Positions 15,136 through 64,000 of a DNA stretch of 64,000 nucleotides are shown here, piece by piece; position 1 is the first letter of the stretch, and each line of letters opens with the position of its first letter. This DNA comes from a virus (Duplodnaviria > Caudoviricetes). Where the stretch lies: positions 96,001 to 160,000 of IMG/VR virus record IMGVR_UViG_3300028591_003737. One strand, given 5' to 3'. A program made the position numbers and the translations under genes. The notes under the pieces are model-generated. The model was not told the DNA's origin and searched no databases. It saw only the letters and a program-made list of their open reading frames with translations.

Positions 15136-15167
15136 ATTTTTATATATAAAATATATATAATTTAATT

Positions 15168-15924: not shown

Positions 15925-15950
15925 AATATTATTGTTTGTTTTACATTAAT

Positions 15951-15978
15951 AATATAGTTAATTTTTTAGAAAATTCAA
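15951..15978 (-). promoter_or_regulatory. Putative early/middle promoter TTGAAT-N16-TATATT
   Basis: Reverse complement reads TTGAAT tttctaaaaaattaac TATATT; recurrent motif. Confidence 0.65.
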
Positions 15979-23167: not shown

Positions 23168-23210
23168 TTTATATTTTATATATTTTTACTTTATATATAA
23201 AAATAAAACT

Positions 23211-26364: not shown

Positions 26365-26476
26365 ATTATAATGTTTTAAACATAATTATAATTTAATATA
26401 GATTAATTATAACTAAAAAATCAATCTCTCAAAGTTTTATTTTTATATATAATATAGTGTTTTGTAATGTATACTT

Positions 26477-36713: not shown

Positions 36714-36813
36714 AACATAGAATAAATTTTCAAAAATTCAATATTTTTTACTAAAAAAATTAAAATATTGAAATATAAATTCCAAGTTATCTATATTTAT
36801 ATATAAAAATAAA
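36714..36813. promoter_or_regulatory. Divergent control region with early- and late-type motifs
   Basis: Minus strand: TTGAAT-N16-TATGTT (36714-36741) and TTTATTTTTATATA (36800-36813). Plus strand: TTGAAA-N18-TATATT (36768-36797). Confidence 0.6.
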
Positions 36814-42721: not shown

Positions 42722-42772
42722 AATGTTTTAATGTTTTAACAATATTAATATAGCACTATTTTTTAAAAATTC

Positions 42773-48557: not shown

Positions 48558-50303
48558 TTAAGCTCTTCTGAGTCTCATCATCTGAGCATATACATTGTTA
48601 TAATGACTTTCAAGAACGTCCTTTGGTTCTTCAACTGACTGAGGAGTTTTTGCTGAAGCAAAATCTACACTCTGCCAGAATGATTCAAGAACACCTTCTT
48701 TCTTAAAGTCATAAGCCTTTGACATTCTAACTATTTCGTCTTGTCTTTCTTCTGAAAGAGCATTCCAAGATGGCTGATATTCAGCAGGCATATTTTCAAC
48801 TACGTATACACCAGCGAACTTATCTTGTGCTTTCTGTTCTTTTACAAGCTGTGAGATAGCTTCATCTTTGTTTTCAAGGCTTTCAATAAGAGCGTCAATA
48901 TCTGAAAGCTTAGCAGATTTCTGACTTTCCATGAAAGCAGAAACATTTTCATTTACTTTTGCTTCGATATTAGCATTGTTTTCAGGAGTATATTCTTCAT
49001 TAATCCAACCTTCGATAACTGGAGCAAATTCTTCACAAACCCAATTCTGAACTTCTGGTGCAAATTCTTCACATACCCAATTCTGTACTTCTGGAGCAAA
49101 TTCTTCACATACCCAGTTCTGTACTTCTGGAGCGAATTCTTCTGTAATCCAATTCTGTACTTCAGGAGCGAATTCTTCGCATACCCAATTCTGAATAGTT
49201 TCTGAGAAATTCTCAACTACCCAATTTTGAACATCTGAATTAATAGACTCTGAAAGTTCTGTCTTAAATTCAGGAGCAAATTCTTCTGTAACCCATTTTT
49301 CAATCTTTTCATACTGAGGAGCTTCATAAGCATTTACCTTTTCATTTACACCATTAAGTGTTTCATTAACACTATTAATAGAAGTATTAACACCTTCAAG
49401 TGTTTCATTAAGTTTTGCAATTTCTGCATCCTTAGCTGTTAATGATTCTTGAGCAACATGAAGTTCAGCTTCTAAACTAGTTACCTTTTCAGTAAGTTTA
49501 TCAATTGCTTCTTTTAAATCATTCATTGTAGTATCTTGACTATTTTTGTTATTATCATCTTTATCAGATGTATCTTCTTTATTTTCATCGTCATTTTCTT
49601 CATCTTCTTTCTTGTCATCACCTTCTTCAGATTTTTCATCTTTCTTAGGTTCGTTTTCAGAAGAAGAATCTCCTTCACCTTTATCCTTGTTGTCTTTATT
49701 ATCTTCTTCACCAAGTAAATCATCGTCTTCGCTTTCATCTACGATAGCCCAGATTTCATTACCGTCTTCAGCAGATTCATTTAAACATTCAAGGGTTTGA
49801 TTGGCTTTAAGGTTTAATTTAGCTTGAGCAAAACCAGGTGTACCAACTAAGTCATAAGTTTTAATAGTAGAAAGTGTTACATTACCATTTTCATCAATAG
49901 AACCAGCACCTCTAGAAGAAATATAAAGAGGAACACCACCAGCAACAATAGCTTTTGCATCTTTACCTTTAGCAGTATCAAGTAAAAGAATTGTACCAGT
50001 AATTGTACCATCTTCATTCATTTCAATAGACTCAATCTTATGTGAAACATTATTAAGATTAATATTCATAGTATTAGGATGTTCAAGTTCTCCAAGAAGA
50101 CCTTCAGTTGAAATAACTTTTTGAAGATTTTCAACCATTAATCCGTAATTTTCCTTTGAATATATACGTCTATTTTCATTCTTAATTCCGCAAACACCAA
50201 ATACACCTGTCATACGAACTTCATTAGTATTCTGAGACTCCTGGATCTGCAATCCTGTTGTAGGTCCTAAAGTTTCAAATACCATGCATTTTTTATTTGC
50301 CAT
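48558..50303 (-). CDS. Prohead core protease (T4 gp21-like) fused to an acidic/coiled-coil scaffold region
   Basis: NENRRIY, GELEHP, VSHKI, ISSRGAGS, TYDLVGTPGF, then an acidic linker, coiled coil and 12-aa repeats. Confidence 0.9.
   Translation of the reverse strand: MANKKCMVFETLGPTTGLQIQESQNTNEVRMTGVFGVCGIKNENRRIYSKENYGLMVENLQKVISTEGLLGELEHPNTMNINLNNVSHKIESIEMNEDGTITGTILLLDTAKGKDAKAIVAGGVPLYISSRGAGSIDENGNVTLSTIKTYDLVGTPGFAQAKLNLKANQTLECLNESAEDGNEIWAIVDESEDDDLLGEEDNKDNKDKGEGDSSSENEPKKDEKSEEGDDKKEDEENDDENKEDTSDKDDNNKNSQDTTMNDLKEAIDKLTEKVTSLEAELHVAQESLTAKDAEIAKLNETLEGVNTSINSVNETLNGVNEKVNAYEAPQYEKIEKWVTEEFAPEFKTELSESINSDVQNWVVENFSETIQNWVCEEFAPEVQNWITEEFAPEVQNWVCEEFAPEVQNWVCEEFAPEVQNWVCEEFAPVIEGWINEEYTPENNANIEAKVNENVSAFMESQKSAKLSDIDALIESLENKDEAISQLVKEQKAQDKFAGVYVVENMPAEYQPSWNALSEERQDEIVRMSKAYDFKKEGVLESFWQSVDFASAKTPQSVEEPKDVLESHYNNVYAQMMRLRRA
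48985..49308 (-). repeat. 36-bp coding tandem repeat (EVQNWVCEEFAP)
   Basis: Nine in-phase 36-nt units; five near-identical at 49021-49200. Confidence 0.92.
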
Positions 50304-50424: not shown

Positions 50425-51084
50425 TTAACTCGCAATTTCTTTTGCTATTAAATCTTCTGCTAATACTTCTCCTGTTTCAATATCTACATTTTCTCCATTT
50501 TCTAATGATTGAACTTTTATAGTACTATTACTTTCAGATTTAGAAAGTGATTCAATAAATTCTTTAGAACCACGTACAATAACTGAACCATCTTCAAGAT
50601 TAGTTTCTTTAGGTTTCTCAGAGAATGTCTTTTCAGCATTATCCTGCATATCTTTAAATATTGCCTCAACACTTGCAACAATTTCATTTAATTGTTTCTG
50701 GATATCAAGCATTGATTTTTGAAGTGCTGTAAGAGATGTATAAAGAGCACCTTTACCAGCATTCATTGTAATATTTTGTATAAGAGTATCTTGGGCCTTT
50801 TCATTTACACTCTGCATTTTAAGGAGCATACGGATTTGGTCCATTTCTTGAGAAATCTTATTTGGAATATATGGATGTTCTTCAATATACTTTTGATCAA
50901 AATAATAATTAGAAAGACGTTCTGTTATTTGTTTAGCTTTATCTTTAGCTTGTCCTTCTACTTCATCTAAATCAATAACTAATGTTGGGGTTTCAAGAAC
51001 ATCATCAGGAGAATCATAAACAGGATTCTCTTCACTTCTTAAGAAAAGATCATTAAGAGCGTCTCTATCTTCATTTGTAACCAT
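50425..51084 (-). CDS. Late hypothetical protein, possibly terminase small subunit-like
   Basis: Helical core plus VRGSKEFI, weakly reminiscent of the gp16 C-terminal GS motif; late motif at 51104-51117. Confidence 0.35.
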   Translation of the reverse strand: MVTNEDRDALNDLFLRSEENPVYDSPDDVLETPTLVIDLDEVEGQAKDKAKQITERLSNYYFDQKYIEEHPYIPNKISQEMDQIRMLLKMQSVNEKAQDTLIQNITMNAGKGALYTSLTALQKSMLDIQKQLNEIVASVEAIFKDMQDNAEKTFSEKPKETNLEDGSVIVRGSKEFIESLSKSESNSTIKVQSLENGENVDIETGEVLAEDLIAKEIAS

Positions 51085-51176: not shown

Positions 51177-51359
51177 TTATGAAGTCATCAACTTTGAAAG
51201 AGATTCAATGTGATTTTTAAGATTTATTTTAGTATCAGGACAAACATCTTCAAGAAAAGGAGAACTCATTTCTTCAGGAGTAAGTTCAGTTTCAAGAACT
51301 GTTTTCATAACAGTCATATAAGCGAAATTCTCAAATCTTTTCTGTTTTGTATATGCCAT
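51177..51359 (-). CDS. Small hypothetical protein
   Basis: 60 aa with its own promoter motif TTGAAT-N16-TATATT (51383-51410) and terminator (51123-51152). Confidence 0.7.
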   Translation of the reverse strand: MAYTKQKRFENFAYMTVMKTVLETELTPEEMSSPFLEDVCPDTKINLKNHIESLSKLMTS

Positions 51360-51406
51360 ATTGTCTATTGTTTTACACTATTAATATAGTATTAAAACTA
51401 AATAAT

Positions 51407-51730
51407 TCAATACTTAGGATAAATATATAATATCATATTGTTTGTTTTACAAGGTTTTTCAACATCTAAATTTTCTTCAATCCATTTAGCAACTGGTTTA
51501 TATATCCATCTATGTTGTTTCTGTACTGATAAGAAAATATATTTCTTTGATTTACCTACGTTAATATATTCTTCATAATTATCAAATTTTACTAATCCAG
51601 AATATTTTTCAATAATATATTTTTTAATCTCTGAAATAAATTTATTGTTTATTTCATCAATATCATCTAATACTTCTGTTTCTTTATTTAAGTGAAGTTT
51701 TTCTAATATGTAATTATTGATATTAATCAT
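51407..51730 (-). CDS. Putative internal head protein (CTS-like leader)
   Basis: MININNYILEKLHLNK. Confidence 0.7.
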   Translation of the reverse strand: MININNYILEKLHLNKETEVLDDIDEINNKFISEIKKYIIEKYSGLVKFDNYEEYINVGKSKKYIFLSVQKQHRWIYKPVAKWIEENLDVEKPCKTNNMILYIYPKY

Positions 51731-51732
51731 TT

Positions 51733-52161
51733 TTATTTATATAATTTTTTATTACCATCAATATATTCATAATATTCATCATATAGTTCTCTACCTGATA
51801 AATGCATACTATCATTACCAAAAGTTATAGTTACTCTACTTCTATTAACTAACCATTCAATAATTCTTCTATGTTTTTTAATTAATAAAAATATATCACC
51901 ATCTCTTCTATTAATATCAGACATACTAAAACTATATTGGAAATAATTATTTAAAATATTAATAATTTCTTCATAATCTATTCTACCCCAATATATTTGT
52001 TTTTGAAATGTAGAATTTTCTTTATATATTTTATATATCATAATACATAAATATGTAGCAATGATAATATCTCTAACTTTATCAATATTATCAATTTCAG
52101 ATGATTCAAAATCTTTATTTAAATGTAATTTTTCAGATATATAATTATTAATGTTAATCAT
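51733..52161 (-). CDS. Putative internal head protein (CTS-like leader)
   Basis: MININNYISEKLHLNK. Confidence 0.7.
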   Translation of the reverse strand: MININNYISEKLHLNKDFESSEIDNIDKVRDIIIATYLCIMIYKIYKENSTFQKQIYWGRIDYEEIINILNNYFQYSFSMSDINRRDGDIFLLIKKHRRIIEWLVNRSRVTITFGNDSMHLSGRELYDEYYEYIDGNKKLYK

Positions 52162-52649
52162 TTTTCTTCTAATTCTTCTTTAATTTTTTTAATATCTGCT
52201 TTTGTATTTATTTTGGTATTTCCTGGATCATATCTAAATGATGAAAATAAAAAAAGTTTATTACGATTAATATAATCATCTATCATTTTAATTGCTTTAT
52301 CTACTTTCATTAATGCAGACCACTCACCATTCTTTTTATAAAATGCAAATGTATTTTGTATATGAGGACTTGAATGAGTATGATCTTCAAATGTATATTC
52401 TATCTCTCTGACTACTTTACCAGTTCTATAACTCTTTAAAATTATTGTTTCTTCATTTATTTCTTCTATAATACCAACAAATAATTTAACATATTTATAT
52501 GAAGTATTTGTTTTAGGAGAACTACATATCCCTAACACTTTATCTCCAACATGTATATTATATATATCACAATGTATAGAAGAAGTATTAGTATCTATAT
52601 TCTTATCTAAATGTAATTTTTCAAATATGTAGTTATATATCTGTTTCAT
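52158..52649 (-). CDS. Putative internal head protein (CTS-like leader)
   Basis: MKQIYNYIFEKLHLDK. Confidence 0.7.
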   Translation of the reverse strand: MKQIYNYIFEKLHLDKNIDTNTSSIHCDIYNIHVGDKVLGICSSPKTNTSYKYVKLFVGIIEEINEETIILKSYRTGKVVREIEYTFEDHTHSSPHIQNTFAFYKKNGEWSALMKVDKAIKMIDDYINRNKLFLFSSFRYDPGNTKINTKADIKKIKEELEEK

Positions 52650-53122
52650 TATTTCTTTTCAAATACTCTTAATAAAGGTTCAAGACCATTTTGTGCTGCT
52701 ATATCAATAAGGCATTCATCTTTTACATATATAAAATGATCTGCACCACCATCATCTACCCAAGTATATTCTGATTTAGCTCCTGAAATAGCAATATTTT
52801 TAAATTTTTTTAATATCTCATTATTTTCAGAATAAAATTCTTTTTGTTTCTTATTTACTTTCCAATCATCTAAATTATAATCTTGTGCATATACATTAAA
52901 ATCAATTACATCATTATCTTCAATCCATTTAAGTATTATTGAACTCATCTCATCTTTTCTAGTATTATCAGTAATTGTAAAATTCTTATAATGATTATCA
53001 TATTTATCAAATGATAATATACAAATAATTTTACCAAGAAGTTTTCCTTTTAATACATCACCACTTTCTAAATCTTTATTAAGATGGAGTTTTTCTAATA
53101 TATATGTACTTAAATTAATCAT
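52649..53122 (-). CDS. Putative internal head protein (CTS-like leader)
   Basis: MINLSTYILEKLHLNK. Confidence 0.7.
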   Translation of the reverse strand: MINLSTYILEKLHLNKDLESGDVLKGKLLGKIICILSFDKYDNHYKNFTITDNTRKDEMSSIILKWIEDNDVIDFNVYAQDYNLDDWKVNKKQKEFYSENNEILKKFKNIAISGAKSEYTWVDDGGADHFIYVKDECLIDIAAQNGLEPLLRVFEKK

Positions 53123-54186
53123 TTATTATCTGTTATTATTTTATTTATTCTTTCTTGGAATTCTTTAGATATTACAAATCCTCTTTTCTTTTCTTTATAA
53201 AATAACTTAATAAATAATTCTAATAATTGTTTATATACATTACCCTTTTGACGAATTGCTTTTTGTAATTCAGGAATAACTCTATCAACTTGTACAGCAT
53301 ATGTTTTAGAAGTATTAAGTCTAATTTTTGCACCAAGATTAATTAATTTATTAAATATCTTAGTATCACTCATCATATAAAAGAATGCTCTTTGTAATTT
53401 CTCTAACCAACTAACATCAACATTCCATTCTGGATCTTTTGCATTTTCAAGATAATCTACAAAAGTATTATATATCTTCTCATAAGTATCAGCATTCTTT
53501 TCTCTTTCTTCTTCATTTCCTTTATCTCTATCTTTCATACTCTGTCTATAAGTAGGATCAACTATTTTATATTCAGCAATCTTTTCACCAACTGGAAAGA
53601 AGAATACAATACCTTCAATATAATCATCAGCAGCAGATATAAGTTTATCTGGGAAATTCTTATAAGTATCAAACATTGAATGAACCCAATTAATAAATTC
53701 TTTCTTTTCTGGAACAATAGCACTTGAAAGAATATTTACGATACTGTCAATCTGTTCATCAGTAAGTTTACCCTCCCAAAGAGTAGGCATTACATCAGTA
53801 CCAAGTTCATCAGCTATTTCTTTAATCTTATCAGCAGACTGAATAAAATTATCATTCTTATCAATAATAGCAGTAAGAAGAAGTAAATTATCAATTACTT
53901 CAAATGTCAAAAACTTATAGTTTTTAAATACATCTACATGTTTTTCAACATGAGCGATAGCATCATTAACTGGTTTTGAGAATAATCTTGTATAGTCATC
54001 AATCTCTGGACCAACATGAGTTTCATCACCAGAACGACCATGATATTCTAATGAATCTGATTGTTCATTATAAAGAACTTGAAATGGTTTACCATCTACT
54101 TTAAGATTGATTTTAATACCATCAAGTTCAAGAAGTTTTTCACAAACTTCTGGTTTCTTTTTATATATATCAATAAAATGTTCCAT
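53119..54186 (-). CDS. ATP-dependent ligase/capping-enzyme fold nucleotidyltransferase (RNA ligase-like)
   Basis: Motif I KVDG, FE, motif IV EGIV, motif V YKIVDP. Confidence 0.6.
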   Translation of the reverse strand: MEHFIDIYKKKPEVCEKLLELDGIKINLKVDGKPFQVLYNEQSDSLEYHGRSGDETHVGPEIDDYTRLFSKPVNDAIAHVEKHVDVFKNYKFLTFEVIDNLLLLTAIIDKNDNFIQSADKIKEIADELGTDVMPTLWEGKLTDEQIDSIVNILSSAIVPEKKEFINWVHSMFDTYKNFPDKLISAADDYIEGIVFFFPVGEKIAEYKIVDPTYRQSMKDRDKGNEEEREKNADTYEKIYNTFVDYLENAKDPEWNVDVSWLEKLQRAFFYMMSDTKIFNKLINLGAKIRLNTSKTYAVQVDRVIPELQKAIRQKGNVYKQLLELFIKLFYKEKKRGFVISKEFQERINKIITDNK

Positions 54187-54200
54187 AATATATTATTTAA

Positions 54201-55103
54201 TTAATCTTTTACTTTACCATAACTTCCATCATCTTTATAATAAGTACATGGAAAATCTTCTTTTTCAACAGGAACTTCACATTTAGGATCATTTATATAT
54301 TCCATATAAAATCTCTTTTCAGTTCTTTCAAGAACTTCTTTACCCCAAGGCCATAAATCTGAATGAATTGCTTTCCAAAGTCCTTCTACAGTATTAAATA
54401 TCTTAGGATCAATATCATTAGTATCAAATATAAATCTCATTACATTCATAGGATCATTAGAAACAAGTTCTTTAAATTCTTGCTTAGCAGTACTTACATA
54501 TTGACCTTTCTTTCCAACATGATTAGCAAGATATTTGAATACACCTTCTTGATTAAATGTATATCTCCATTTTTTCTTTACATCTCCATTGTCAAAATAT
54601 TCATTCTGTGCATCTTTTACAGGAATACTTGATACAATATGTTGAATAAGATATACTTTAGGAGCAGCTTTATATTTACTTTCTCCTTTCTTAAAATCTG
54701 GACTTGAGAATCTCCATTTAGCCCAATCAATATTATCTGTAAACATAAAATCAACTTGAGCAACTCCTTTCTTTCCTTCTTTATCCCATTCATATCCAAT
54801 AGATACAATCTTAGGAGTAGTAAAAGGATTTAATTCTGATTCAGGAAATACTTCCTTAATCATATTCATAAGTTCTTCTCTATTATTTAAATCAATAGCG
54901 ATATCAATATCACCATTAAAATCATCATCTTTCTTTTTACCAATACTTCCAAGAGGAGCCATTTTTACACTACTTTTCCAAGCATGTACTTTATCTTCTA
55001 TTTCTTTATATATAAGAGGAGTTATATATGCAGGAATTGGTTGAGAAGAAACTGCATGTCCACTTTCTAACATTAAATTAATATATTCAATTATTGATTT
55101 CAT
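54201..55103 (-). CDS. Pol-beta superfamily nucleotidyltransferase with CTS-like leader
   Basis: LGSIGKK...GDIDIA...QVDFM; starts MKSIIEYINLMLE. Confidence 0.8.
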   Translation of the reverse strand: MKSIIEYINLMLESGHAVSSQPIPAYITPLIYKEIEDKVHAWKSSVKMAPLGSIGKKKDDDFNGDIDIAIDLNNREELMNMIKEVFPESELNPFTTPKIVSIGYEWDKEGKKGVAQVDFMFTDNIDWAKWRFSSPDFKKGESKYKAAPKVYLIQHIVSSIPVKDAQNEYFDNGDVKKKWRYTFNQEGVFKYLANHVGKKGQYVSTAKQEFKELVSNDPMNVMRFIFDTNDIDPKIFNTVEGLWKAIHSDLWPWGKEVLERTEKRFYMEYINDPKCEVPVEKEDFPCTYYKDDGSYGKVKD

Positions 55104-55105
55104 AA

Positions 55106-55420
55106 TTATTTATCTTCATCTTTATTTTGTAATGTTGATAATGAAACAAAATGTTTACAAAATTTAGTTAAATTTTTAAAATCTCTTTGCATTAATATTT
55201 TAAATCCTAAAATCATTAATGCTCCTCCTAATTGTATAGGATGCCAGATTTTTTTAGCTTCTATACCTTCTTTTTCTAAAAGATTACGTAATTTAATTTC
55301 ATCAATTTCTAATTCTTGAAGAAAATTAGAAAATATTTTATCTATATCTTTATTTTCTAAACTTTCAGAAATTAATAAATTATTTACTGGTTTATTTATA
55401 AATTCTTCTAATGATTTCAT
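55106..55420 (-). CDS. Hypothetical protein with CTS-like leader
   Basis: MKSLEEFINK...LISE. Confidence 0.65.
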   Translation of the reverse strand: MKSLEEFINKPVNNLLISESLENKDIDKIFSNFLQELEIDEIKLRNLLEKEGIEAKKIWHPIQLGGALMILGFKILMQRDFKNLTKFCKHFVSLSTLQNKDEDK

Positions 55421-56337
55421 TTTATATATTCTATAGCTTTATTTAATAATTGTGTAAATTCATCAACTAATGATTTATCAGTTTTCATTTTAAACTGCCA
55501 ATCTTCAAGATATGATTTCTTAATATTTTCCATCATTTCTTTACTTCTTCTTGGATATTTATCAGATACAAGATAATCAAGAAGAGATTCAAAAGAATTA
55601 CAATCACTTTGTTCTGATTCTTTACCAAGAATTAAATCAAGTATCTTTCTTACATTAGTAGTAACTTTTTCTTTTGAAACTGTTTTAGGTGAAGCAAGTG
55701 GTTTTGTTTTACCTTCAAATGATTTTTTAACTATCAATAATCCTTCTGCTTGTGATAATTGATATTTATAAAATTCTTTAACTTGTCCAGAATATTTACC
55801 ATTAAATTCATCAGTAAATTTAACTTCTTCTTTTCCTTCAACTGGAGTATTTGATACAACAGCCATTAAAAGATTAGACTGATACATTCCTTTATATTTT
55901 GATTCTCCTTTAGTAAAATCTGGTGAATTATAAGCAAATTTAGCAAATTCAACATCATTTACAAACATAAAATCAACTTGAACAATCTTTTCTGTTCCAT
56001 CTTCATCATATTTATATCCAATATTAAATACATGAAGACCTTCATTTATATTTCCAATTTCACTTCCAAATTGTTTCTTTACAAAATCAATAACTTTATC
56101 TTTATCTTCCCAAGGTAATTCAAGAGCAATATCAATATCTCCTGAAGTTTGTTCTTTAGATTTCTTACCTGTTGAACCAAGTGCTGAAGCTTTACATTTA
56201 AATTCTTTAGTAATAGAATTAATAATTTCATCTGCTACTACTTTAGCAAGATCACCACGAATAGGTGATGCATTTTCAACGGAATGTCCACCTTCAACTA
56301 TTAAAGATTCTTTTATATATTCAATTATTGATTTCAT
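55417..56337 (-). CDS. Pol-beta superfamily nucleotidyltransferase (paralog of 54201..55103) with CTS-like leader
   Basis: LGSTGKK...SGDIDIA...QVDFM...SPDF.KGESKYK shared with the paralog; starts MKSIIEYIKE. Confidence 0.8.
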   Translation of the reverse strand: MKSIIEYIKESLIVEGGHSVENASPIRGDLAKVVADEIINSITKEFKCKASALGSTGKKSKEQTSGDIDIALELPWEDKDKVIDFVKKQFGSEIGNINEGLHVFNIGYKYDEDGTEKIVQVDFMFVNDVEFAKFAYNSPDFTKGESKYKGMYQSNLLMAVVSNTPVEGKEEVKFTDEFNGKYSGQVKEFYKYQLSQAEGLLIVKKSFEGKTKPLASPKTVSKEKVTTNVRKILDLILGKESEQSDCNSFESLLDYLVSDKYPRRSKEMMENIKKSYLEDWQFKMKTDKSLVDEFTQLLNKAIEYIK

Positions 56338-56338
56338 A

Positions 56339-57154
56339 TTAATAAATTTCTTTATTTACTTCTTCTTCTATTCTATTAATAAAATCTGAACATCTTTTTA
56401 TAAATTTATCATCTCCATCATAATATTGTTTATTCTCTTCTAATCCTTTTTTTGCTCCTTTTATAAAAGAACTTAAAACATTTCCAAAGAATTCTACTCC
56501 CCATTCACCAATCCAAGATTTACCATAATTTTCAATATCTTGTAATCTTGTTTTTGATTCATTAACTATATATTCATTAATTGATTTCATATTATTATTT
56601 TGTATATATTTCAATATATTGCTTTCTTTAATTGATGATATTTGTTTTTTAAATTCAGAGAATAAATCATGAGCTTCTTTAGGCATTAATTCTTTAAATT
56701 TTTCTTCATCATCATTTTTTATTGCTTCTCTAACATCTGTTGCTGAACCATATCTTTTAGTAATATAAAATTCTGGTTCATCTATTCCAAGTTCATCTTT
56801 AATAGATTTACCTTTCATTAATTTTTTATATCCATCAATTCTATCTTCACCAGCAAGCCAAAGAACTGGTTCATATCCATTTTCAATACATACTCTACAT
56901 ATTGTCATTGGCATTGGTCTTCTTATCCAATTAATTCCTTCAATATATTCATATTTATCTACAAGACGTTCAAGTTCTTTCTTTGTCAATTCATCATCAA
57001 ATGGTTTTCTTGAATCAAACTTTTCATTATGAATATACATAATATAAACTGGAAGACCATTCTTTTTGAATGCATCTTCACAAGCTTTCAAGTGACCATT
57101 ATGAAATGGTTGAAAACGACCTGGGAATATATTTACTTTTTTAAGTTCTGACAT
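56339..57154 (-). CDS. HxGH cytidylyl/adenylyltransferase family protein (NadM/NMNAT-like fold)
   Basis: GRFQPFHNGH, AGEDR, SATDVREAI. Confidence 0.85.
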   Translation of the reverse strand: MSELKKVNIFPGRFQPFHNGHLKACEDAFKKNGLPVYIMYIHNEKFDSRKPFDDELTKKELERLVDKYEYIEGINWIRRPMPMTICRVCIENGYEPVLWLAGEDRIDGYKKLMKGKSIKDELGIDEPEFYITKRYGSATDVREAIKNDDEEKFKELMPKEAHDLFSEFKKQISSIKESNILKYIQNNNMKSINEYIVNESKTRLQDIENYGKSWIGEWGVEFFGNVLSSFIKGAKKGLEENKQYYDGDDKFIKRCSDFINRIEEEVNKEIY

Positions 57155-57163
57155 AATATTTAT

Positions 57164-59059
57164 TTATTTTTTTACAAAACCAATTGTTCCATGTCCATTC
57201 CAATCTGATGGACCACAACCAGCAATATCAAATTTAAATACTTGTTTATTTAATGGATATAATTTCAAAATAATATCTAATTTTTTATCTTCTTTGTTCC
57301 ATTTTATTTCAGTATCTATTTGATTAGATTCTAAATAATTATTTAATAAAATAGATAATATATTAGAAGTATCATTTTCATTATTTATTTCATTTGAATA
57401 TAAATTATTTAATTCATCTACACATCTAATAATTAATGGGTACATAATTTTTGAATAATTTTCTTGATAAACTTTATTCTTTCCTCCACTTTTAATATAA
57501 TAATCAGTATTTTTTATATCCTTTTCAGAACTTAATCCATCCCAAGATATAAAATTCCAATCCATATTACCTTTTATTTTTGTTTTATTACTTATACCAA
57601 TTAAAATATCTTTTATCTCATCTTTATTTTTATAATTATCTATTAAATATAATGCTCTATCTTTTTCTGGATAATCCCAATTATCTTTTTTTAATTGTAA
57701 AATATTACATAATTTTTTAAAATTCTCATCATCTTCAAATAATGACCAAGATAATTTCCATATATTTCTATTTTGATCAGTTTTTGCTAAACCGCTTCCA
57801 TCTTTTTTTAATTTATAAAATATTTTCATTCTTTCAAGAAATTCATCAATTTCTTGTTTAGTAATATTAAATGAATCAGCTATTTGATAAATATTATTTA
57901 AAATATCTTTATCTTTATTATCAATTTCTTTAAAAATATTTATCATTATAGAAGAAATACTTGGTCTATGTCCATTTTTAGAATCTTTACTTTTAATAGA
58001 AATACCTATTCCATTAAAATATAAATCATTTAAAAATTCACTACCATTATCTGGCCAATATAATGAATTTCTATCTTCTTTTTTACAATATTTATATAAT
58101 AACAATCCTGCTAATACTTCTCCAAATCCTACTTCTAATGAATTTCTATCTTGTGGAGATAATGTATTATAAATATTATTATACTTTTCTGTTAAATTAA
58201 TTGTATGTTTTATTTCTAAATTATTTTTTGATAATTTAGATAAAATATCTTTATCAATTATATAATTACTAATATTAGAATTTAAAATTTCTTTTGATAT
58301 ATATGATATAAAATCTGAATATATACCATCTTCTATAGTTATATTTTTCTTTGAGTTATTTGTAATTAATGATAATATTCTTTCTATATCTTTATTATTT
58401 TGTAAATTAAATCCATCTTCAATCGAATTTGAAGTTAATCCTAATGCTTTTGGTTGTACTGATTCTGTTTTTATAAGAATTCTTTCTCCTTTACCATTTG
58501 AATCTGTATTACAAATATAAAATTCTTTATCTTTCCAAGTAACTTTTACACTAAGGAAACTTCTAGAAGATTTTTCTCTATTTATTTTTGGTTCATCTAC
58601 TTTAAAATCATCCATTCCAACAATATTACCTCCCAAAATTTTTTCAATATTTTCTTTAAAAGTTGATGAATGACCAAATTCTCCTCTTATATATTCTTCA
58701 GGATATTTTCCAGAATTCCAACCTTTAACTATATTTGGCCCAGTTTTTATATAAAAAGATACATTTCTTTTTCCTAAAATATTTAAATATGTTTTTAATG
58801 AATTAGCATTTGAAGTACAAATAACTTTTGAACCCTTTTTATAAATTGGTTCATTATTATCATTAAATCCTTCTATAGGAAATTTAGTATTATAAATAGA
58901 ATATTTTTGATCTTTAGAAGGAAATAAATAATCATATAAAGAAATATTATATTTTGACATAATACTTCTCATAGCATCATATTTATTTTTTGATGTTTCT
59001 TCTATGTCTTCAAAAATATTTATAATATTTTCATTAATATATTCTATAATACTTTTCAT
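57164..59059 (-). CDS. Large CTS-leader protein with putative PD-(D/E)xK nuclease-like motif
   Basis: Likely start MKSIIEYINE at 59059; FGEVLA...WP...NDLYFNGIGISIKSK. Confidence 0.55.
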   Translation of the reverse strand: MKSIIEYINENIINIFEDIEETSKNKYDAMRSIMSKYNISLYDYLFPSKDQKYSIYNTKFPIEGFNDNNEPIYKKGSKVICTSNANSLKTYLNILGKRNVSFYIKTGPNIVKGWNSGKYPEEYIRGEFGHSSTFKENIEKILGGNIVGMDDFKVDEPKINREKSSRSFLSVKVTWKDKEFYICNTDSNGKGERILIKTESVQPKALGLTSNSIEDGFNLQNNKDIERILSLITNNSKKNITIEDGIYSDFISYISKEILNSNISNYIIDKDILSKLSKNNLEIKHTINLTEKYNNIYNTLSPQDRNSLEVGFGEVLAGLLLYKYCKKEDRNSLYWPDNGSEFLNDLYFNGIGISIKSKDSKNGHRPSISSIMINIFKEIDNKDKDILNNIYQIADSFNITKQEIDEFLERMKIFYKLKKDGSGLAKTDQNRNIWKLSWSLFEDDENFKKLCNILQLKKDNWDYPEKDRALYLIDNYKNKDEIKDILIGISNKTKIKGNMDWNFISWDGLSSEKDIKNTDYYIKSGGKNKVYQENYSKIMYPLIIRCVDELNNLYSNEINNENDTSNILSILLNNYLESNQIDTEIKWNKEDKKLDIILKLYPLNKQVFKFDIAGCGPSDWNGHGTIGFVKK

Positions 59060-59063
59060 AATT

Positions 59064-59534
59064 CTATACTTTTTTATCTTCTTTAACTGGAATTGGTGGA
59101 ATTGGTACAATATTCAATGCAGGAACATTTACTTGTACACCCCTTATGTCTTCCATATTCTTTGGTGGATTTGATTCTCCAAAATTTTCTTTATAATATT
59201 TATCCAAATCAATACTATCTTTTGGAATATATGGAATTGGAACAATTGTCAAAAGAGGAACTTTAAGTTGTGTTGTCTTTCCATTAGCATCAGTAAATTT
59301 TATTTTACCGTCAGATTCAACAATATTTGGATGATCAAACTTAGGATATTCTTTAATTAAATCTTCAAGAAAATCTTTAGTAAATACTCCAGGTAATTGT
59401 TCTAATTTTTGAACATGATTATTCATTAATTCATCAACAGTCATATCTGCCGCATCAACTACTCTTACGGTGTTTGGTAATATAAACTTACCAATTTTTT
59501 CTCTAAGCTTATTAAACATATTTAATTTATTCAT
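59064..59534 (-). CDS. Hypothetical Pro-rich protein
   Basis: 156 aa, duplicated VP.L.IVPIP motif. Confidence 0.7.
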   Translation of the reverse strand: MNKLNMFNKLREKIGKFILPNTVRVVDAADMTVDELMNNHVQKLEQLPGVFTKDFLEDLIKEYPKFDHPNIVESDGKIKFTDANGKTTQLKVPLLTIVPIPYIPKDSIDLDKYYKENFGESNPPKNMEDIRGVQVNVPALNIVPIPPIPVKEDKKV

Positions 59535-59553
59535 TATCTTTTAAAATTTTATA

Positions 59554-60195
59554 TTAATCTTTCCATGCTTGAATAACCTTCAAATTATCTAATTGAAGTC
59601 CACGAGCATATTGTATATTTTTGGTATCATCATCAACAAAGATGACTTTATCATATTTTGAGCAAAGATCTTTAAGAACATTTGCTTTCTTTTCTGCATC
59701 AGATTTTCCAGGATAATCTTTGAATTCATCATTGATAGCATGAGAAAGTGTTTCTTTAAATATATCTTCTAATTCTTTAAGATTACCTTCATCATCTTTA
59801 TATCTTAAGAAATCACGAAGTGCTTTTTTAACGGCTTCTTCACAACCTCTAGCAGTTAAGAAACAGAAATGATAACCAGCTTTAATATAAGAATCCATAA
59901 TCTTAAGATTCTTTATAAGTGGTGTTCCTTCAATAATTGAATTATATACTTTTACTTCATCACGAAAATCTCTAAAGTCAAACCAATCTCTATGATTAGC
60001 AATATCTGGATCAACAGCAAATTCTTCTGTTGTTAATGCTATTTCTTTTTTAGTAGTAGGATCTTTTTTATAAATCTTTATACTATCTGGTTTTACTTTA
60101 AGAAGAGTATCATCTATATCAAAAACAATCAAGCCACTCACTGATTTAGGAAGTGGTTTGATTGCCTCATATATATATTCTATAATGCTTTTCAT
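59554..60195 (-). CDS. HAD-superfamily phosphatase with CTS-like leader
   Basis: FDIDDTL, LTARG, K, FVDDD; likely start MKSIIEYIYE at 60195; late motif at 60222-60235. Confidence 0.85.
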   Translation of the reverse strand: MKSIIEYIYEAIKPLPKSVSGLIVFDIDDTLLKVKPDSIKIYKKDPTTKKEIALTTEEFAVDPDIANHRDWFDFRDFRDEVKVYNSIIEGTPLIKNLKIMDSYIKAGYHFCFLTARGCEEAVKKALRDFLRYKDDEGNLKELEDIFKETLSHAINDEFKDYPGKSDAEKKANVLKDLCSKYDKVIFVDDDTKNIQYARGLQLDNLKVIQAWKD

Positions 60196-60239
60196 TTTTA
60201 TATAATTAATATGATTTAATATATATAAAAATAAAATCT

Positions 60240-60584
60240 TTATTCCCAATAATTTTTAGGATTTAAACAATTATCTCCAAAAGTGCCGCATAAATCCTTT
60301 CTACCATCAACATAATGCCATATATCAAGAGCAATATCTTTAGTAGTTTTTATTTCTTCATTTAAAACAAATCTAAGATTTAAATCAGTATTTATTTCAT
60401 CTAATAATTTTTGATTAAAAATTTTAATAATCCAATAAAGATGTTCTATATGATTAAAATTACCTTGTTCATCTTCTATTCTTTTATAACAATCAGATAT
60501 TTCATAATCTAAATGAAATTTAATTACTTCATCATCTTTAATATTCATTAAATCTTCAATATGTTCTAATTCTTTTACTCGCAT
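60240..60584 (-). CDS. Hypothetical protein
   Basis: 114 aa, no CTS-like leader. Confidence 0.7.
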   Translation of the reverse strand: MRVKELEHIEDLMNIKDDEVIKFHLDYEISDCYKRIEDEQGNFNHIEHLYWIIKIFNQKLLDEINTDLNLRFVLNEEIKTTKDIALDIWHYVDGRKDLCGTFGDNCLNPKNYWE

Positions 60585-60742
60585 ATCAATTCAACTTTAG
60601 TAATTTTAACTTCATCAGTAAGTCCATGTTTATATATACCTACTTCAACTGCATCATATTCATCATAGACATTATCCACATAGAATTCACCTTTTGATGA
60701 ATAACTATCACCATATAAATAAGAAACTTTATACGTTGCCAT
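60575..60742 (-). CDS. Small hypothetical protein (55 aa, not in track)
   Basis: MATYKVSYLYG...ELICE*, downstream of promoter motif TTGATT-N18-TATATT (60778-60807). Confidence 0.65.
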   Translation of the reverse strand: MATYKVSYLYGDSYSSKGEFYVDNVYDEYDAVEVGIYKHGLTDEVKITKVELICE

Positions 60743-60784
60743 ATATTATTGATATATTTTTTTAGTTTATATATAATAATATAG

Positions 60785-60815
60785 AAAAAGAGGTTGAATT
60801 AAATCAACCTCTTTT
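60785..60815 (-). terminator. Intrinsic terminator overlapping a promoter motif
   Basis: aaaagaggttga / tcaacctctttt. Confidence 0.75.
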
Positions 60816-61445
60816 AGTATACCATGATGGTTTTTTCTTTAATTTATTACAATCTTTAAACATTAAAGTTTTTTTACCAATTCTTTTATAATCCCAAGAT
60901 TCTAAATCTCTATTAAAATTCTTACAACCCCAGAACATATAATCACAATCACAACCATTTTCTCTGAATTTCCAATTAGATATATCTTCATTAAATAATT
61001 CACAATTCATGAACATACTTTTTGTACTTCTACAATTATCTAATTCCCAATATCTTAAACCATTTCCTTCAAAGTTTTTACAATTCAAGAACATACCATA
61101 CATGTCTTGAACATTATGTACATCCCATTTAGATAAATCACAATCAAAGTTTACACAATCTCTAAACATTTCATCCATATCTTTTACATTAGATACATCC
61201 CAATCAGATATATTAATATTATATATCTTATCTCCGAATGGTTTAAATAAATCACTCATATAATCTATTTTAGATACATCAATATCATTTAAATCTGCAT
61301 CTCTTCCTCTTTCATTAATAAGTCTTTCAAGAAGTTCACTTAATTCTTTTTTATTTTCTGGAAAGAATTGAGGTTCTACTTCTTTTTTAACTTCTGAATG
61401 ATTAAACTTAAGTTTTTCTATTATGTAGTTATCTATATGTTTCAT
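60804..61445 (-). CDS. DUF285/BspA-type repeat protein with CTS-like leader
   Basis: LNDIDVSKI, ISDWDVSNVKDMDEMF, LSKWDVHNVQDM.GMF, FNEDISNW; starts MKHIDNYIIEKL. Confidence 0.85.
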   Translation of the reverse strand: MKHIDNYIIEKLKFNHSEVKKEVEPQFFPENKKELSELLERLINERGRDADLNDIDVSKIDYMSDLFKPFGDKIYNINISDWDVSNVKDMDEMFRDCVNFDCDLSKWDVHNVQDMYGMFLNCKNFEGNGLRYWELDNCRSTKSMFMNCELFNEDISNWKFRENGCDCDYMFWGCKNFNRDLESWDYKRIGKKTLMFKDCNKLKKKPSWYTKRG

Positions 61446-61448
61446 GAA

Positions 61449-61748
61449 TTATTGTTTAATATATTTTACTATAAATTCAGCAATTTGATCTTTTATTTTA
61501 TCTTTCTTATCATCTTGTAAAAATTCATCATCAGATGGTTGATATGCAAGATATTCTTTTGGATATTTCTCTGCTAAACAATCTGATAATTTCTTTAATC
61601 TACCTTCAACATCACAAATTCCATCAAGTAATTCACTATAATTTTCTTTAGTAAAGTTTTTACTTGACTTAAACATATTTATTGTTATTTCACACCAAAG
61701 AGGATGTTTCTTTAATTCCTCAGTAATATATTCATTAATCTTTATCAT
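61449..61748 (-). CDS. Putative internal head protein (CTS-like leader)
   Basis: MIKINEYITEEL. Confidence 0.7.
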   Translation of the reverse strand: MIKINEYITEELKKHPLWCEITINMFKSSKNFTKENYSELLDGICDVEGRLKKLSDCLAEKYPKEYLAYQPSDDEFLQDDKKDKIKDQIAEFIVKYIKQ

Positions 61749-61750
61749 AA

Positions 61751-62209
61751 TTAAATTACTCCTGAAATTATAAAACTTTTTGTATCATCAGTTATTGAAA
61801 ATCCAATAATTCTATCTGATAAACAATATCTTTCAACATACTTAGATAAATTTCCATTATCTAAAATTACTTCTGTACTAGTTTGTGAAGCAACTATATC
61901 ATTTATTTTATCTCTATCTTGTTTTGAATATTTTCCATAACTTGGAATATACTTTTCAATAAAATCTTTACTTTCTTCAGATAATTTTCCTTTATTTGGA
62001 TAATCAGTAGTTCCTCTATAAAGATATTTAAAATCTTCAATTTTAGAAACATGCATATCTTTAAAAAGTTTTTTAATATTTTCACTTTCTTTTAACTCTT
62101 CCCAATCAAATAATTCAGATATAGTTTTTAAAAAATCATCCATATCTGATACTTTAGTATTCTTATCTAAATGAAGTTTTTCTATTATATATGTATTAAG
62201 TTTTATCAT
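61751..62209 (-). CDS. Putative internal head protein (CTS-like leader)
   Basis: MIKLNTYIIEKLHLDK. Confidence 0.7.
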   Translation of the reverse strand: MIKLNTYIIEKLHLDKNTKVSDMDDFLKTISELFDWEELKESENIKKLFKDMHVSKIEDFKYLYRGTTDYPNKGKLSEESKDFIEKYIPSYGKYSKQDRDKINDIVASQTSTEVILDNGNLSKYVERYCLSDRIIGFSITDDTKSFIISGVI

Positions 62210-62224
62210 TATTTAATATTTTCT

Positions 62225-62620
62225 TTATTTAATATTTTCTTTTAAAAAATTATAAAAACTATTAAAGAGATTATTCATATTATCTCTATCATCAAGATCA
62301 TTATATTCTATTTTATTTTTTGATGACCATCCATTTTCATCTGGCCAATCTATAGTATCATTATAAATTAAAGATAATTCTAAATGATGCATATCAGAAT
62401 ATCTAAATATATGAATAAATTTTTCGGTATCTGATAAATAAATATTTAAAGCACTTTTATGATCTTTTCCTTTTAAATATCTAGATATAACTTTTTTATT
62501 ATCAGATAATTCTAAATCACTTAATTTAGAAATAGATAATAAATTTATATTAGATTCTTTTGCTTCACTGTTTTTATTAAGTTGAAGTTTCTCAATTATA
62601 TATGTATTAAGTTCTTTCAT
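62225..62620 (-). CDS. Putative internal head protein (CTS-like leader)
   Basis: MKELNTYIIEKLQLNK. Confidence 0.7.
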   Translation of the reverse strand: MKELNTYIIEKLQLNKNSEAKESNINLLSISKLSDLELSDNKKVISRYLKGKDHKSALNIYLSDTEKFIHIFRYSDMHHLELSLIYNDTIDWPDENGWSSKNKIEYNDLDDRDNMNNLFNSFYNFLKENIK

Positions 62621-63318
62621 TATGCTCCTAATTCTTTTTTTAATTCATCAATAAATTGTTGACTCCATTTAAAATTTTTATCATTTACCCTATAATTATA
62701 ATATGTTCCTCCAATTATAAATATTATTTCACATTTAGCACTTTTATTCTTATAAGTTACTTTAAAAGGTAAAGCAATTTTTCCATTTCTTTCTTTCATT
62801 ATTTCAAGAGCTTCTTTTGAATAACTATCATAATCAGTATAATTAAATTCTATTCTATACTTTTGATTCTTAATTATTACATCTAATAAAGTTTCAATAA
62901 CATCATAATATTCTGCTGCTAATTTAGTAGGTAAATCATGTAATTCTTCTGGTTTAGCTAATTCATAAGCATTTATAAAATCTTGAGGTTTAGCATTATA
63001 TTGATCTATTCCTCTATCAACAAAATATGAACCAAAATTACCTGGAAGAGAAATTAGTGTATTTTTATAAATATATGGTACAGAATTAGTCATTATCATT
63101 ATTGTAACCCATTTTTTAATACAACTATTAGCACTTAAACATTTATTAGAAAGATTTTTACATCTTTCTCTATCATAACCAACACTATATCTTGATGTAG
63201 AATTAAAAATATCTTTTACCTTTTCTTCATCTTCTTTAGTGATAGTATATGTATTGATATCTTTAATATCTTTATTAAGTTTAAGTTTCTCTACTATATA
63301 ATTATCTAATTCTATCAT
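62620..63318 (-). CDS. Putative internal head protein (CTS-like leader)
   Basis: Likely start MIELDNYIVEKLKLNK at 63318. Confidence 0.7.
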   Translation of the reverse strand: MIELDNYIVEKLKLNKDIKDINTYTITKEDEEKVKDIFNSTSRYSVGYDRERCKNLSNKCLSANSCIKKWVTIMIMTNSVPYIYKNTLISLPGNFGSYFVDRGIDQYNAKPQDFINAYELAKPEELHDLPTKLAAEYYDVIETLLDVIIKNQKYRIEFNYTDYDSYSKEALEIMKERNGKIALPFKVTYKNKSAKCEIIFIIGGTYYNYRVNDKNFKWSQQFIDELKKELGA

Positions 63319-63319
63319 A

Positions 63320-63511
63320 TTATCCTTTATGTGCAAAATATGCTTTTAATGCATTTTCAGCATCTGTTTTTGTATGATATTTAGCTTTCCAATATCCTCG
63401 TTTAGGTGTATTAGTTCCTTTACCAGCATGTCCTTTTATTCTCCAATAATCACCAACTTTTACAATGACATCTTCAAGTTCTTCTGTTAAATATTGTTTT
63501 AATGTTTTCAT
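63320..63511 (-). CDS. Small basic putative internal head protein (CTS-like leader)
   Basis: MKTLKQYLTEE; late motif at 63513-63526. Confidence 0.7.
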   Translation of the reverse strand: MKTLKQYLTEELEDVIVKVGDYWRIKGHAGKGTNTPKRGYWKAKYHTKTDAENALKAYFAHKG

Positions 63512-63528
63512 ATATATAAAAATAAAAA

Positions 63529-63999
63529 TTAAGGTGTGACTAAACCATTTAAGTCAATAATCTTTCTAGCAGTATCATTAATTAAAAGATTAGAATTTGT
63601 TGGGTACATTTGAAGTATTTCACTAACATTATCTATATAAATATCAAATACTTTAATATTTGTTATATTACCATAAAATGAACTTAATATAACTTCTGAT
63701 TTAGTATCTATAACTAATTCAATATCAAATCTTGATACACTCTTTATAGAATTATCAATATCAAACCAATAATGATGGTTTTGTAATTTATAAATAGGTA
63801 AATCAGCATGTGTATATTCTGAAGCAGAAAATTCTGAAACATTCAAATCTTGACTATATCTGAAATATACAAAATATGTTTTATCTGGAGTTAATTCTAA
63901 TGACATATTTTTAAGATTAATTAAAGTAAGTTTACAGCTAGTTTTTGTTTGTTTTATCTTAATTTTAATATGTCCAACTTCAAATAATACTCCTTCATA
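63529..63999 (-). CDS. Hypothetical protein, 5'-truncated by window edge
   Basis: The frame of ORF 63529..63906 stays open to the window end (YEGVLFEVGHIKIK...). Confidence 0.7.
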   Translation of the reverse strand, partial: YEGVLFEVGHIKIKIKQTKTSCKLTLINLKNMSLELTPDKTYFVYFRYSQDLNVSEFSASEYTHADLPIYKLQNHHYWFDIDNSIKSVSRFDIELVIDTKSEVILSSFYGNITNIKVFDIYIDNVSEILQMYPTNSNLLINDTARKIIDLNGLVTP

Positions 64000-64000
64000 A

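Follow-up and report, generated by a model that had tools for sequence, protein, structure and literature searches.

Why should one block of a phage genome hold so many genes that differ in almost everything except their first ten or so residues? This question is raised by the minus strand between positions 51407 and 63511 of a 64,000-nucleotide stretch (hereafter the window), which represents bases 96001-160000 of one 169,614-bp viral contig (IMG/VR record IMGVR_UViG_3300028591_003737; 27% G+C; completeness ~60% by CheckV). Judged from its genes, the contig belongs to an uncultured T4-type phage, whose host is probably a member of Bacteroidota rather than Escherichia, and near-identical sequence has turned up in 14 metagenome studies of sheep and cattle guts. 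The region comprises 20 non-nested open reading frames (ORFs), all on one strand and, for the most part, either directly adjacent or with overlaps of a few bases, and 15 of them start with a shared leader. We consider, with moderate confidence, that this N-terminus is a T4-type capsid-targeting propeptide that would be removed by cleavage, and that the phage probably packs many proteins in its head, several enzymes among them; a delivered role in repair or counter-defence is much less certain. From upstream to downstream, the array and its upstream flank are as follows (pI, isoelectric point).

63529-64000, minus strand: 3' part of a T4-type neck protein of 543 residues, the gene exceeding the window end (for the full ORF, Pfam T4_neck-protein, 3.8e-6, and PHROG head closure Hc2, 4.5e-13); flanks the array upstream.
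63512-63526, minus strand: 15-mer TTTATTTTTATATAT, abutting the first ATG of block 1.
63320-63511, minus strand: 63-residue basic protein (pI 9.7), leader MKTLKQYLTE; the member most like the T4 internal proteins.
62620-63318, minus strand: 232-residue protein, long leader MIELDNYIVEKLKLNKD; known domain not found.
62225-62620, minus strand: 131-residue protein, long leader MKELNTYIIEKLQLNKN.
61751-62209, minus strand: 152-residue protein, long leader MIKLNTYIIEKLHLDKN.
61449-61748, minus strand: 99-residue protein, leader MIKINEYITE; its orthologues in relatives L008 and L002 bear those phages' own leader versions.
60804-61445, minus strand: 213-residue DUF285 (BspA-type repeat) protein, leader MKHIDNYIIEKLKF (Pfam DUF285, 2.3e-41, domain from residue 49; paralogue at genome 28204).
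60787-60814, minus strand: GC-rich hairpin plus T run (terminator-like), end of block 1.
60575-60742, minus strand: 55-residue ORF without leader, behind CTATATTATTA (60774-60784).
60240-60584, minus strand: 114-residue acidic ORF without leader.
60221-60235, minus strand: second exact copy of the 15-mer, 25 nucleotides before block 2.
59554-60195, minus strand: 213-residue HAD phosphatase (polynucleotide-kinase-phosphatase-like), leader MKSIIEYIYE (Pfam Hydrolase, residues 22-198, 2.5e-5, just below the Pfam cut-off; PHROG 415 at 5e-10; HAD domain from ~residue 20).
59064-59534, minus strand: 156-residue ORF without canonical leader, MNKLNMFNKLRE (L4, F7, L-R-E at 10-12).
57164-59059, minus strand: 631-residue protein, leader MKSIIEYINE.
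56339-57154, minus strand: 271-residue HIGH-motif (cytidylyltransferase-like) nucleotidyltransferase, no N-terminal leader (Pfam CTP_transf_like, 1.8e-7).
55417-56337, minus strand: 306-residue Pol-beta-superfamily (PolX-like) nucleotidyltransferase, MKSIIEYIKE-SLIVE-GGHSV.
55106-55420, minus strand: 104-residue protein, 19-residue IPI-like leader MKSLEEFINKPVNNLLISE.
54201-55103, minus strand: 300-residue paralogue of the PolX-like enzyme, MKSIIEYINLMLE-SGHAV (29% identity to 55417-56337, E 2.6e-30).
53119-54186, minus strand: 355-residue ligase-like nucleotidyltransferase without leader (KVDG, EGIV and YKIV motifs read from the sequence; weak Pfam RNA_ligase match, E 0.055).
52649-53122, minus strand: 157-residue protein, long leader MINLSTYILEKLHLNKD.
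52158-52649, minus strand: 163-residue protein, long leader MKQIYNYIFEKLHLDKN.
51733-52161, minus strand: 142-residue protein, long leader MININNYISEKLHLNKD.
51407-51730, minus strand: 107-residue protein, long leader MININNYILEKLHLNKE.

The pattern M-x2-[ILVM]-x2-[YF]-[ILVM]-x-E is strictly matched by 13 of the 15 leader ORFs, the two variants being 54201-55103 (MKSIIEYINLMLE, Glu at 13) and 55106-55420 (MKSLEEFINK..LLISE, Glu at 19). Five ORFs (53119-54186, 56339-57154, 59064-59534, 60240-60584, and 60575-60742) lack an N-terminal leader, and the start of 59064-59534 is possibly a degenerate tag. The starts at 59059, 60195, and 63318 correspond to the first ATG, since the longer frames open at TTG and extend into the preceding gene. 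A sequence-only reading of the window had quoted these 15 leaders, moved three of them to a downstream Met, noted the two leaderless ORFs at 60240-60584 and 60575-60742, and described the remainder of the proteins as mostly unrelated, and the ORF list agrees with it; on the last point, only 3 of the 630 pairs among 36 leader proteins of the genome are related once 20 residues are trimmed (BLASTP E<1e-3).

At first-ATG N-termini, x3-[ILVMF]-x2-[YFH]-[ILM]-x-E occurs in 32 of 212 genome ORFs, against 0.12 expected from the rate of the pattern inside the same proteins, and it is ~280 times commoner at N-termini than within proteins of the same composition. Moreover, the profile search that had been proposed was run over the genome ORFs, and a hidden Markov model of the leader (first 18 residues) returned 33 segments at E<0.01, every one N-terminal, with a few weaker segments and one weak internal copy (E=0.055). 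Synonymous codons vary within the leader (Leu TTA/CTT/CTC, Ile ATA/ATT, Glu GAA/GAG) and the DNA upstream of leader genes is not conserved, which argues for selection on the peptide and not on a DNA cassette or an mRNA signal. Consequently, it is highly improbable that the shared start is a by-product of AT-rich codons, of an initiation preference (the refutation that the earlier reading had itself foreseen), or of recent copying of gene heads at the DNA level. The low G+C content of the genome and the AT-rich leader codons would favor such an origin; however, neither the enrichment over protein interiors nor the codon variation is explained by it, and the same kind of tag is found in T4 and in a phage contig of 44% G+C (L051), so that it is not an AT-rich artefact.

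The leader takes two forms. The short form (MKSIIEYIxE and similar) is carried by the 63- and 99-residue proteins and by larger proteins, several of them enzymes, and the long form, M-x-x-[IL]-x-x-Y-I-x-E-K-L-H-L-N-K-D, by eight proteins of 107-232 residues; KLHLNKD, a second conserved motif after the predicted cut, is present in half of the tagged genes. Polar and charged residues (N, E, K, D) are mixed in the leader, which was modelled as a short amphipathic helix, and the hydrophobic core of at least ~10 residues after a basic N-region that marks a Sec, Tat, or lipoprotein signal peptide is absent. Behind the leader, cargo is mostly mildly acidic (pI 5-6) and up to 631 residues long, and only 63320-63511 is small and basic (pI 9.7). 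After Met1, the most informative positions in the 36 leaders are 7 (Tyr), 10 (Glu), 8 (Ile), and 4 (Leu/Ile), which are, at the sequence level, the targeting and processing positions of T4.

In T4, a capsid-targeting sequence (CTS) is carried by internal proteins IPII and IPIII, by IPI in a 19-residue form, and by Alt, and is removed by gp21 (Mullaney and Black, 1996; reviewed in PMC9026906, PMC3012670). The first ten residues of IPIII are enough for head loading, residues 4 and 7 acting mainly in targeting and 8 and 10 in processing, gp21 cuts after L/I-x-E, and the tag has been suggested to let T4-like phages pack varied proteins (PMC9026906). In the T4 record, IPII and IPIII start with MKTYQEFIAE and IPI with MKTFKEFTSTTTPVSTITE; the T4 facts given in the sequence-only reading, namely this decapeptide and the gp21 site (PMC9026906), were right.

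By analogy, the array would be co-transcribed with the flanking neck, scaffold, protease, and capsid genes, and the leader, as a short amphipathic helix with hydrophobic residues at 4, 7, and 8 (plus 12 and 14 in the long form), would bind the assembling prohead core. A gp21-family protease would then cleave after Glu in [I/L]-x-E, at Glu10 in most members, with an additional cut in the PolX-like enzymes just before their conserved Gly-Gly core; the released proteins would stay inside the head and, most likely, accompany the DNA into the next host. We infer core binding, cleavage, virion retention, ejection, and a post-entry role, as well as the transcription timing of the array.

The genes that such a mechanism would call upon lie immediately 3' of the array, where the sequence-only reading had placed the prohead protease and capsid genes and where we find them together with the core genes; the phage is of the T4 type, with an S77 protease. 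On the minus strand, the order is the 60-residue protein, the 219-residue protein, the protease, the capsid protein, and then the tail sheath and an adjacent 194-residue ORF.

51177-51359, minus strand: 60-residue protein with VLE, FLE, and HIE sites, conserved in relatives; putative small prohead-core protein.
50425-51084, minus strand: 219-residue very acidic protein (pI 4.4), kept next to the protease in L002, L004, L005, L006, L007, L008, and L009; putative scaffold/core protein.
48558-50303, minus strand: 581-residue prohead protease of the gp21/S77 family, with GELEHP (His75), SSRGAGS, and an acidic coiled-coil tail bearing repeats (Pfam Peptidase_S77, PF03420, 4.7e-9; PHROG 207 at 4.6e-40).
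46714-48441, minus strand: 575-residue gp23-type major capsid protein (Pfam Gp23, 1.2e-29).

With the neck gene upstream and the core, protease, and capsid genes downstream on the same strand, the array is embedded in a one-strand block of virion genes. The GELEHP and SSRGAGS motifs of the protease (catalytic His and Ser) align to T4 gp21 (5JBL). In an alignment of 10 relatives, the N-terminal 42 residues of the capsid protein are conserved and end in an invariant A-I-H-E-I-H-E, followed by Ser and a variable linker; this piece has the look expected of a gp23-like propeptide cut at I-x-E. As a separate observation, the protease tail (window 48950-49230, residues ~359-417) contains five tandem 12-residue repeats, QNW[VI]xEEFAPE(V), that come after a long acidic, coiled-coil stretch of the ORF. 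A single protein appears to combine protease and scaffold, in line with the annotation of Tenacibaculum phage PTm1.

Related phages extend this picture. Nine IMG/VR loci were recovered by a protease search (50-84% identity) and their 10-kb flanks were fetched; tagged genes lie upstream of scaffold and protease in eight of the nine, at least two in seven of them and one in L002, with none in the fetched flank of L010. Each relative has its own version of the leader: YIxEKLHLNKD in L006, YITEKLHLKKG in L008, MKDLKQHIFEKLKIS (His at 7) in L003, YIQEKLNLSK in L005, and the short form only in L009 (a 410-kb contig). Further versions are MKxFKQ in L043 and L044 and a 9-residue MKTLxxLYE in cultured phage PAU, while position 7 is Tyr in the phage studied here. 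Orthologous cargo takes on the local version: the HAD phosphatase begins MKSIIEYIYE here and MKTLTQHLFE in L003. A leader that is uniform within a genome across unrelated cargo and drifts between genomes fits one shared binding partner per phage. The long form is lineage-restricted, given that a back-translated scan of IMG/VR for YIxEKLHLNK met it in only ~10 contigs, which come from a handful of rumen projects; when the N-terminal 40 residues of one long-leader protein served as query in a word-indexed search, nothing but the protein's own cluster was retrieved, a result that is uninformative on the spread of the tag.

PAU is named as a Sphingomonas phage, and its host has been reclassified as Sphingobacterium. 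Its capsid protein is 34% identical to the one encoded here, and in its whole genome (GenBank JQ362498) ~20 genes start with MKT[LI]xx[LM][YF]E. These cluster among portal, protease, scaffold, and capsid genes, with 13 of them (gp131-133, 142-146, 149-150, and 152-154) inside the head module at 100-113 kb; the record labels gp142 and gp154 'internal capsid protein' and gp152 'scaffolding'. Seven PAU tags continue x-K-L-N-E, a second L-x-E site, and of these six end in Ala or Ser and one in Asn. From N-terminal sequencing, the PAU capsid protein is reported to lose 65 residues (585 to 520; Hua et al., 2017); the reported cut lies one residue from L62-M63-E64, an approximate fit only. A literature search found no paper describing the PAU tag family. 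Since PAU is cultured, the reading proposed here is directly testable in it.

If the leader does target the prohead and is cut, the proteins could nevertheless serve head assembly or DNA packing, as core, scaffold, or internal body, instead of being delivered, and many may be degraded or expelled like T4 core proteins. The position of the array beside the protease, where T4 keeps its core genes, the scaffolding label of the tagged PAU gp152, and the failure of any cargo protein to match a known anti-defence family in Pfam, PHROG, and similar searches of the ORFs all speak for such a role. On the other hand, several members are enzymes whose catalytic motifs are intact (GS...DxD...D in the PolX-like proteins, DxDxT in the HAD phosphatase), most members are neither basic nor coiled-coil, and strains and relatives differ in array content, an unusual feature for assembly parts; we regard this possibility as unlikely. 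The absence of anti-defence matches also bears on the sequence-only reading, whose expectation of a cargo rich in anti-defence effectors found no support. Nor is the tag confined to the locus beside the head genes: ~20 further tagged genes are found in other clusters (genome 18-24 kb, 28 kb, 55-57 kb, 63-68 kb, 131 kb, and 168-169 kb), bringing the tagged share to ~1/6 of the genome ORFs. In contrast, the view in that reading that the cargo is more numerous and more enzymatic than that of T4 was upheld, with two PolX-like enzymes, a HAD phosphatase, and a HIGH-motif nucleotidyltransferase fusion. For the 631-residue protein, no match was obtained in Pfam, PHROG, or PDB, and Atlas gave viral orphan clusters only; Atlas leads to restriction-endonuclease-like clusters were weak (0.84-0.86) and were not used.

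Variation among strains was also seen directly. One bovine-gut contig skips 55065-55414, exactly removing the 104-residue gene at its borders, and another has ~330 extra bases at the 52138/52162 junction, between two tagged genes; these differences are gene-sized insertions or deletions. Parts of the array are covered by RNA-library contigs, which cannot reveal timing; the public runs give contigs only, with no start sites, strand, or timing, and uncovered parts carry no meaning.

The PolX-like cargo offers a closer view of the predicted cut. The family of the 306-residue protein has 520 representatives, and its GS...DxD...D signature is invariant in the family alignment. An AlphaFold2 model built on 76 members reached a predicted local distance difference test (pLDDT) score of 95.5, with the domain at 97-98 and the leader as a detached, lower-confidence helix at residues 4-13. 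The nearest folds in Foldseek are family X polymerases, Pol beta and Pol lambda (template-modelling score ~0.4); PDB sequence searches with the PolX-like and ligase-like proteins gave no match. Among 104 homologues with a [GS]G-x-A core near the N-terminus, 83 have Glu immediately before the core, 19 have the initiator Met there, and two have neither; at position -3, Leu, Ile, or Val is found in 77 of 86. The core is thus preceded either by nothing or by a gp21-type cuttable site, a rule that fits removal of the extension after Glu. In nine homologues a ten-residue T4-like tag ends exactly at the core (e.g., MKRFKQYIFE|GGHAV), and in fourteen, including 55417-56337, the tag is followed by a spacer of 5-23 residues ending in Glu, which in ten of these fourteen is ~5-6 residues long and has a second hydrophobic-x-E.

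Of 22 multidomain proteins examined, 20 have the same joint, hydrophobic-x-E|GG, ahead of the module. As an additional observation, the PolX-like module lies inside very long phage proteins (P0019, P0052, P0055, P0056, and P0143; 1,056-1,802 residues), each time after hydrophobic-x-Glu. Leaders are also found within fusions. The HIGH-motif enzyme at 56339-57154 is fused in frame to an 83-residue module that keeps the leader MKSINEYIVNE (nucleotides 56558-56590) and that stands alone as a tagged gene in L009; L006 joins the enzyme via ...PISEYIKESLIVEGGH... to a PolX-like protein, and L009 joins it to a third partner, which follows MMTLKEYIFE. In L004, one frame encodes a tag, then a PolX-like domain, then a second tag and a further module, and two tags stand in tandem at L009 7512-8804. 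Fusions with internal leaders would be harmless if the joints were cut inside the head.

These joints also help to weigh the possibility that the leader is a recognition tag for a factor other than the capsid, such as phage ClpX, a modifying enzyme such as a radical-SAM protein, or a helix for the membrane or a replication site. ClpX reads N-terminal motifs, and the ClpX gene of the phage (genome 61831-63027; L058 7831-9027) is directly beside a tagged gene; in addition, one radical-SAM gene (genome 66667-67554; L058 12667-13554) is two genes from a tagged gene. However, this sole radical-SAM protein (Radical_SAM plus Fer4_12) has no SPASM domain and is encoded ~80 kb from the array, which disfavors a maturase. 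More generally, a non-capsid partner would leave unexplained the invariant Glu10 with Ile or Leu at 8, the match to the T4 map, the alternation of E|GG and M|GG, and the head-module placement in PAU and relatives. We therefore judge it quite unlikely.

Tagged PolX-like forms occur in T4-like contigs, namely L043 and L044 (UvsW, UvsY, gp44), L052 (gp19, gp25), and L051 (44% G+C), and their neighbors bear that phage's own version of the tag. The PolX-like gene recurs near a HIGH-motif nucleotidyltransferase gene (L043/L044, L051, L052) and near a ligase-like gene (KxDG, some Pfam DUF6267; L043/L044, L051, L054, L055), with a tagged poly(A)-polymerase/CCA-family gene in L044, a tagged 2H-phosphoesterase gene in L051, and sometimes an HD gene as extras. 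These gene sets form a conserved, nucleic-acid end-repair-like module that recurs in diverse phage contigs, most of them T4-like; their coordinates are as follows.

L043: 5164-8313.
L044: 3238-4677.
L051: 8859-15115.
L052: 9074-12902.
L054: 3060-5101.
L055: 4056-6196.

We advance a speculative extension, doubtful on present evidence: T4-type phages may widely pre-load a nucleic-acid end-repair kit in the capsid and deliver it along with their DNA, the kit being composed of PolX-like enzymes (with a Gly-Gly N-terminus made by the head protease), HIGH-motif and ligase-like enzymes, and HAD enzymes of the 3'-phosphatase type. Such a kit would mend the damage that defence nucleases inflict on the incoming genome or on host tRNAs, before phage gene expression; the tag would co-evolve with each phage's own prohead core, and fusions with internal tags would be cut apart in the head.

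Cargo homologues elsewhere lack the tag. Leaderless PolX-like homologues had been expected to be confined to phages that are not T4-like, and this failed: P0016, in crAss-like contig L046, fits, while L054 is T4-like. In several called genes of L046 (an ENA ERZ773180 contig) there are in-frame stops, which suggests that a recoded stop codon is used, as in some crAss-like phages.

Several observations weigh against a capsid-targeting propeptide. The leaderless PolX-like copy in L054 sits in a T4-like head module with an S77 protease; the enzyme, then, does not need the tag, which is optional even among T4-like phages. Many tagged genes are far from the head genes, the tag being carried by so large a share of the ORFs, and the mildly acidic cargo is unlike the basic internal proteins of T4. 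The long form has Lys at P1' and the conserved KLHLNKD, which a simple removable tag leaves unexplained. Furthermore, hydrophobic-x-E before the Gly-Gly core could in part be a structural element of the domain, and the 'internal capsid protein' label in PAU is a database annotation of unstated basis. Finally, the 15-mer TTTATTTTTATATAT is 0-1 nucleotides from two array start codons, a poor fit to a conventional promoter.

This 15-mer was the motif that the sequence-only reading had seen at the head of both blocks, where exact copies are indeed found (60221-60235 and 63512-63526). It has 9 exact copies in the genome against 0.09 expected, and the next base is always A (16-mer TTTATTTTTATATATA); six copies lie in the window, and three more elsewhere in the genome.

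15133-15147, plus strand: copy of the 16-mer.
23193-23207, minus strand: copy of the 16-mer.
26436-26450, plus strand: copy of the 16-mer.
36799-36813, minus strand: copy of the 16-mer.
60221-60235, minus strand: copy before block 2.
63512-63526, minus strand: copy before block 1.

All 9 copies are 0-145 nucleotides upstream of an ATG, mostly 0-27 (seven within 30), and often follow a hairpin, so that the 16-mer looks like a terminator-plus-start signal unit. Four directly head a leader gene or array (both array blocks, and genome 24086 and 55403), and a fifth precedes a 410-residue ORF just upstream of leader gene 34910-35437. Other ORFs, one of them with 703 residues, follow the remaining copies, the largest ORFs are preceded by near-copies, and the core of the 15-mer is found 4 nucleotides before the capsid gene ATG. 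Pfam and PHROG searches gave nothing for most ORFs behind the 15-mer; the labels 'late' and 'early' promoter given previously are guesses. The 410-residue ORF (window 35437-36669) starts with MKRFSQLFEA, resembling the PAU tag form MKTLVQLFES, and its exact 15-mer copy is ~130-145 nucleotides upstream of the ATG. A second recurrent motif, CTATATTAATA or CTATATTATTA, was observed on the minus strand at window 51379-51389, 42743-42753, 60774-60784, and 15947-15957, in each case 20-32 nucleotides before genes that include the 60-residue core-like gene and the two leaderless ORFs of the array.

Head loading of varied proteins by means of a short tag that is later cleaved away is textbook knowledge for T4. 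What is new here is the scale, with about one in six ORFs tagged, the mostly acidic and often enzymatic cargo, the second motif KLHLNKD, the internal tags in fusions, the Glu-or-Met rule, and the link to cultured phage PAU. If the tag works as in T4, dozens of different proteins, among them enzymes with nucleic-acid ends as substrates, would travel in each particle of this phage and of its relatives, and current ideas of what enters the cell with a T4-type phage at infection would have to change; for uncultured phages of gut and rumen, there would also be a simple sequence rule to predict which proteins are delivered. The Glu-or-Met rule before the PolX-like core provides a natural control for the protease cut site.

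Compared with known systems, the closest likeness is to the T4 CTS. Both phages have a protease of the S77 family and a gp23-type capsid, and in both a 10-residue tag stands on unrelated proteins with M1, K2, a hydrophobic residue at 4, an aromatic one at 7, I/L at 8, and E10 (MKTYQEFIAE in T4; MKSIIEYIxE or MKTLKQYLTE here). The 19-residue variant of IPI is matched in length and cut position by 55106-55420 (I17-S18-E19), and the set of tagged genes varies among related phages in both cases. In contrast, T4 has four tagged genes, whereas ~36 were found here in a 170-kb fragment; its internal proteins are small and basic, whereas the cargo here is mostly acidic or neutral and includes several nucleic-acid enzymes of 200-630 residues; and KLHLNKD after the predicted cut in half of the genes, as well as leaders inside fusion proteins, distinguish the present phage. 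T4 infects Escherichia, while a Bacteroidota host is probable here.

PAU shares with this phage an S77-type protease, capsid kinship, tagged head-module genes, and a second motif starting at K11-L12 (KLNE[AS]); it differs in a tag one residue shorter (Glu9), in a second motif that is itself an L-x-E site, and in being cultured. In phiKZ-like giant phages (phiKZ, 201phi2-1, SPN3US), a gp21-related protease cuts at S/A-x-E (PMC9026906, PMC5694885, PMC10052503). There too, many head-internal proteins are matured after Glu, propeptide sites are redundant, and much protein is delivered with the DNA; however, the propeptides are long and mutually unrelated, without a common 10-residue tag, and both the lineage and the P3 motif differ from those of the phage described here.

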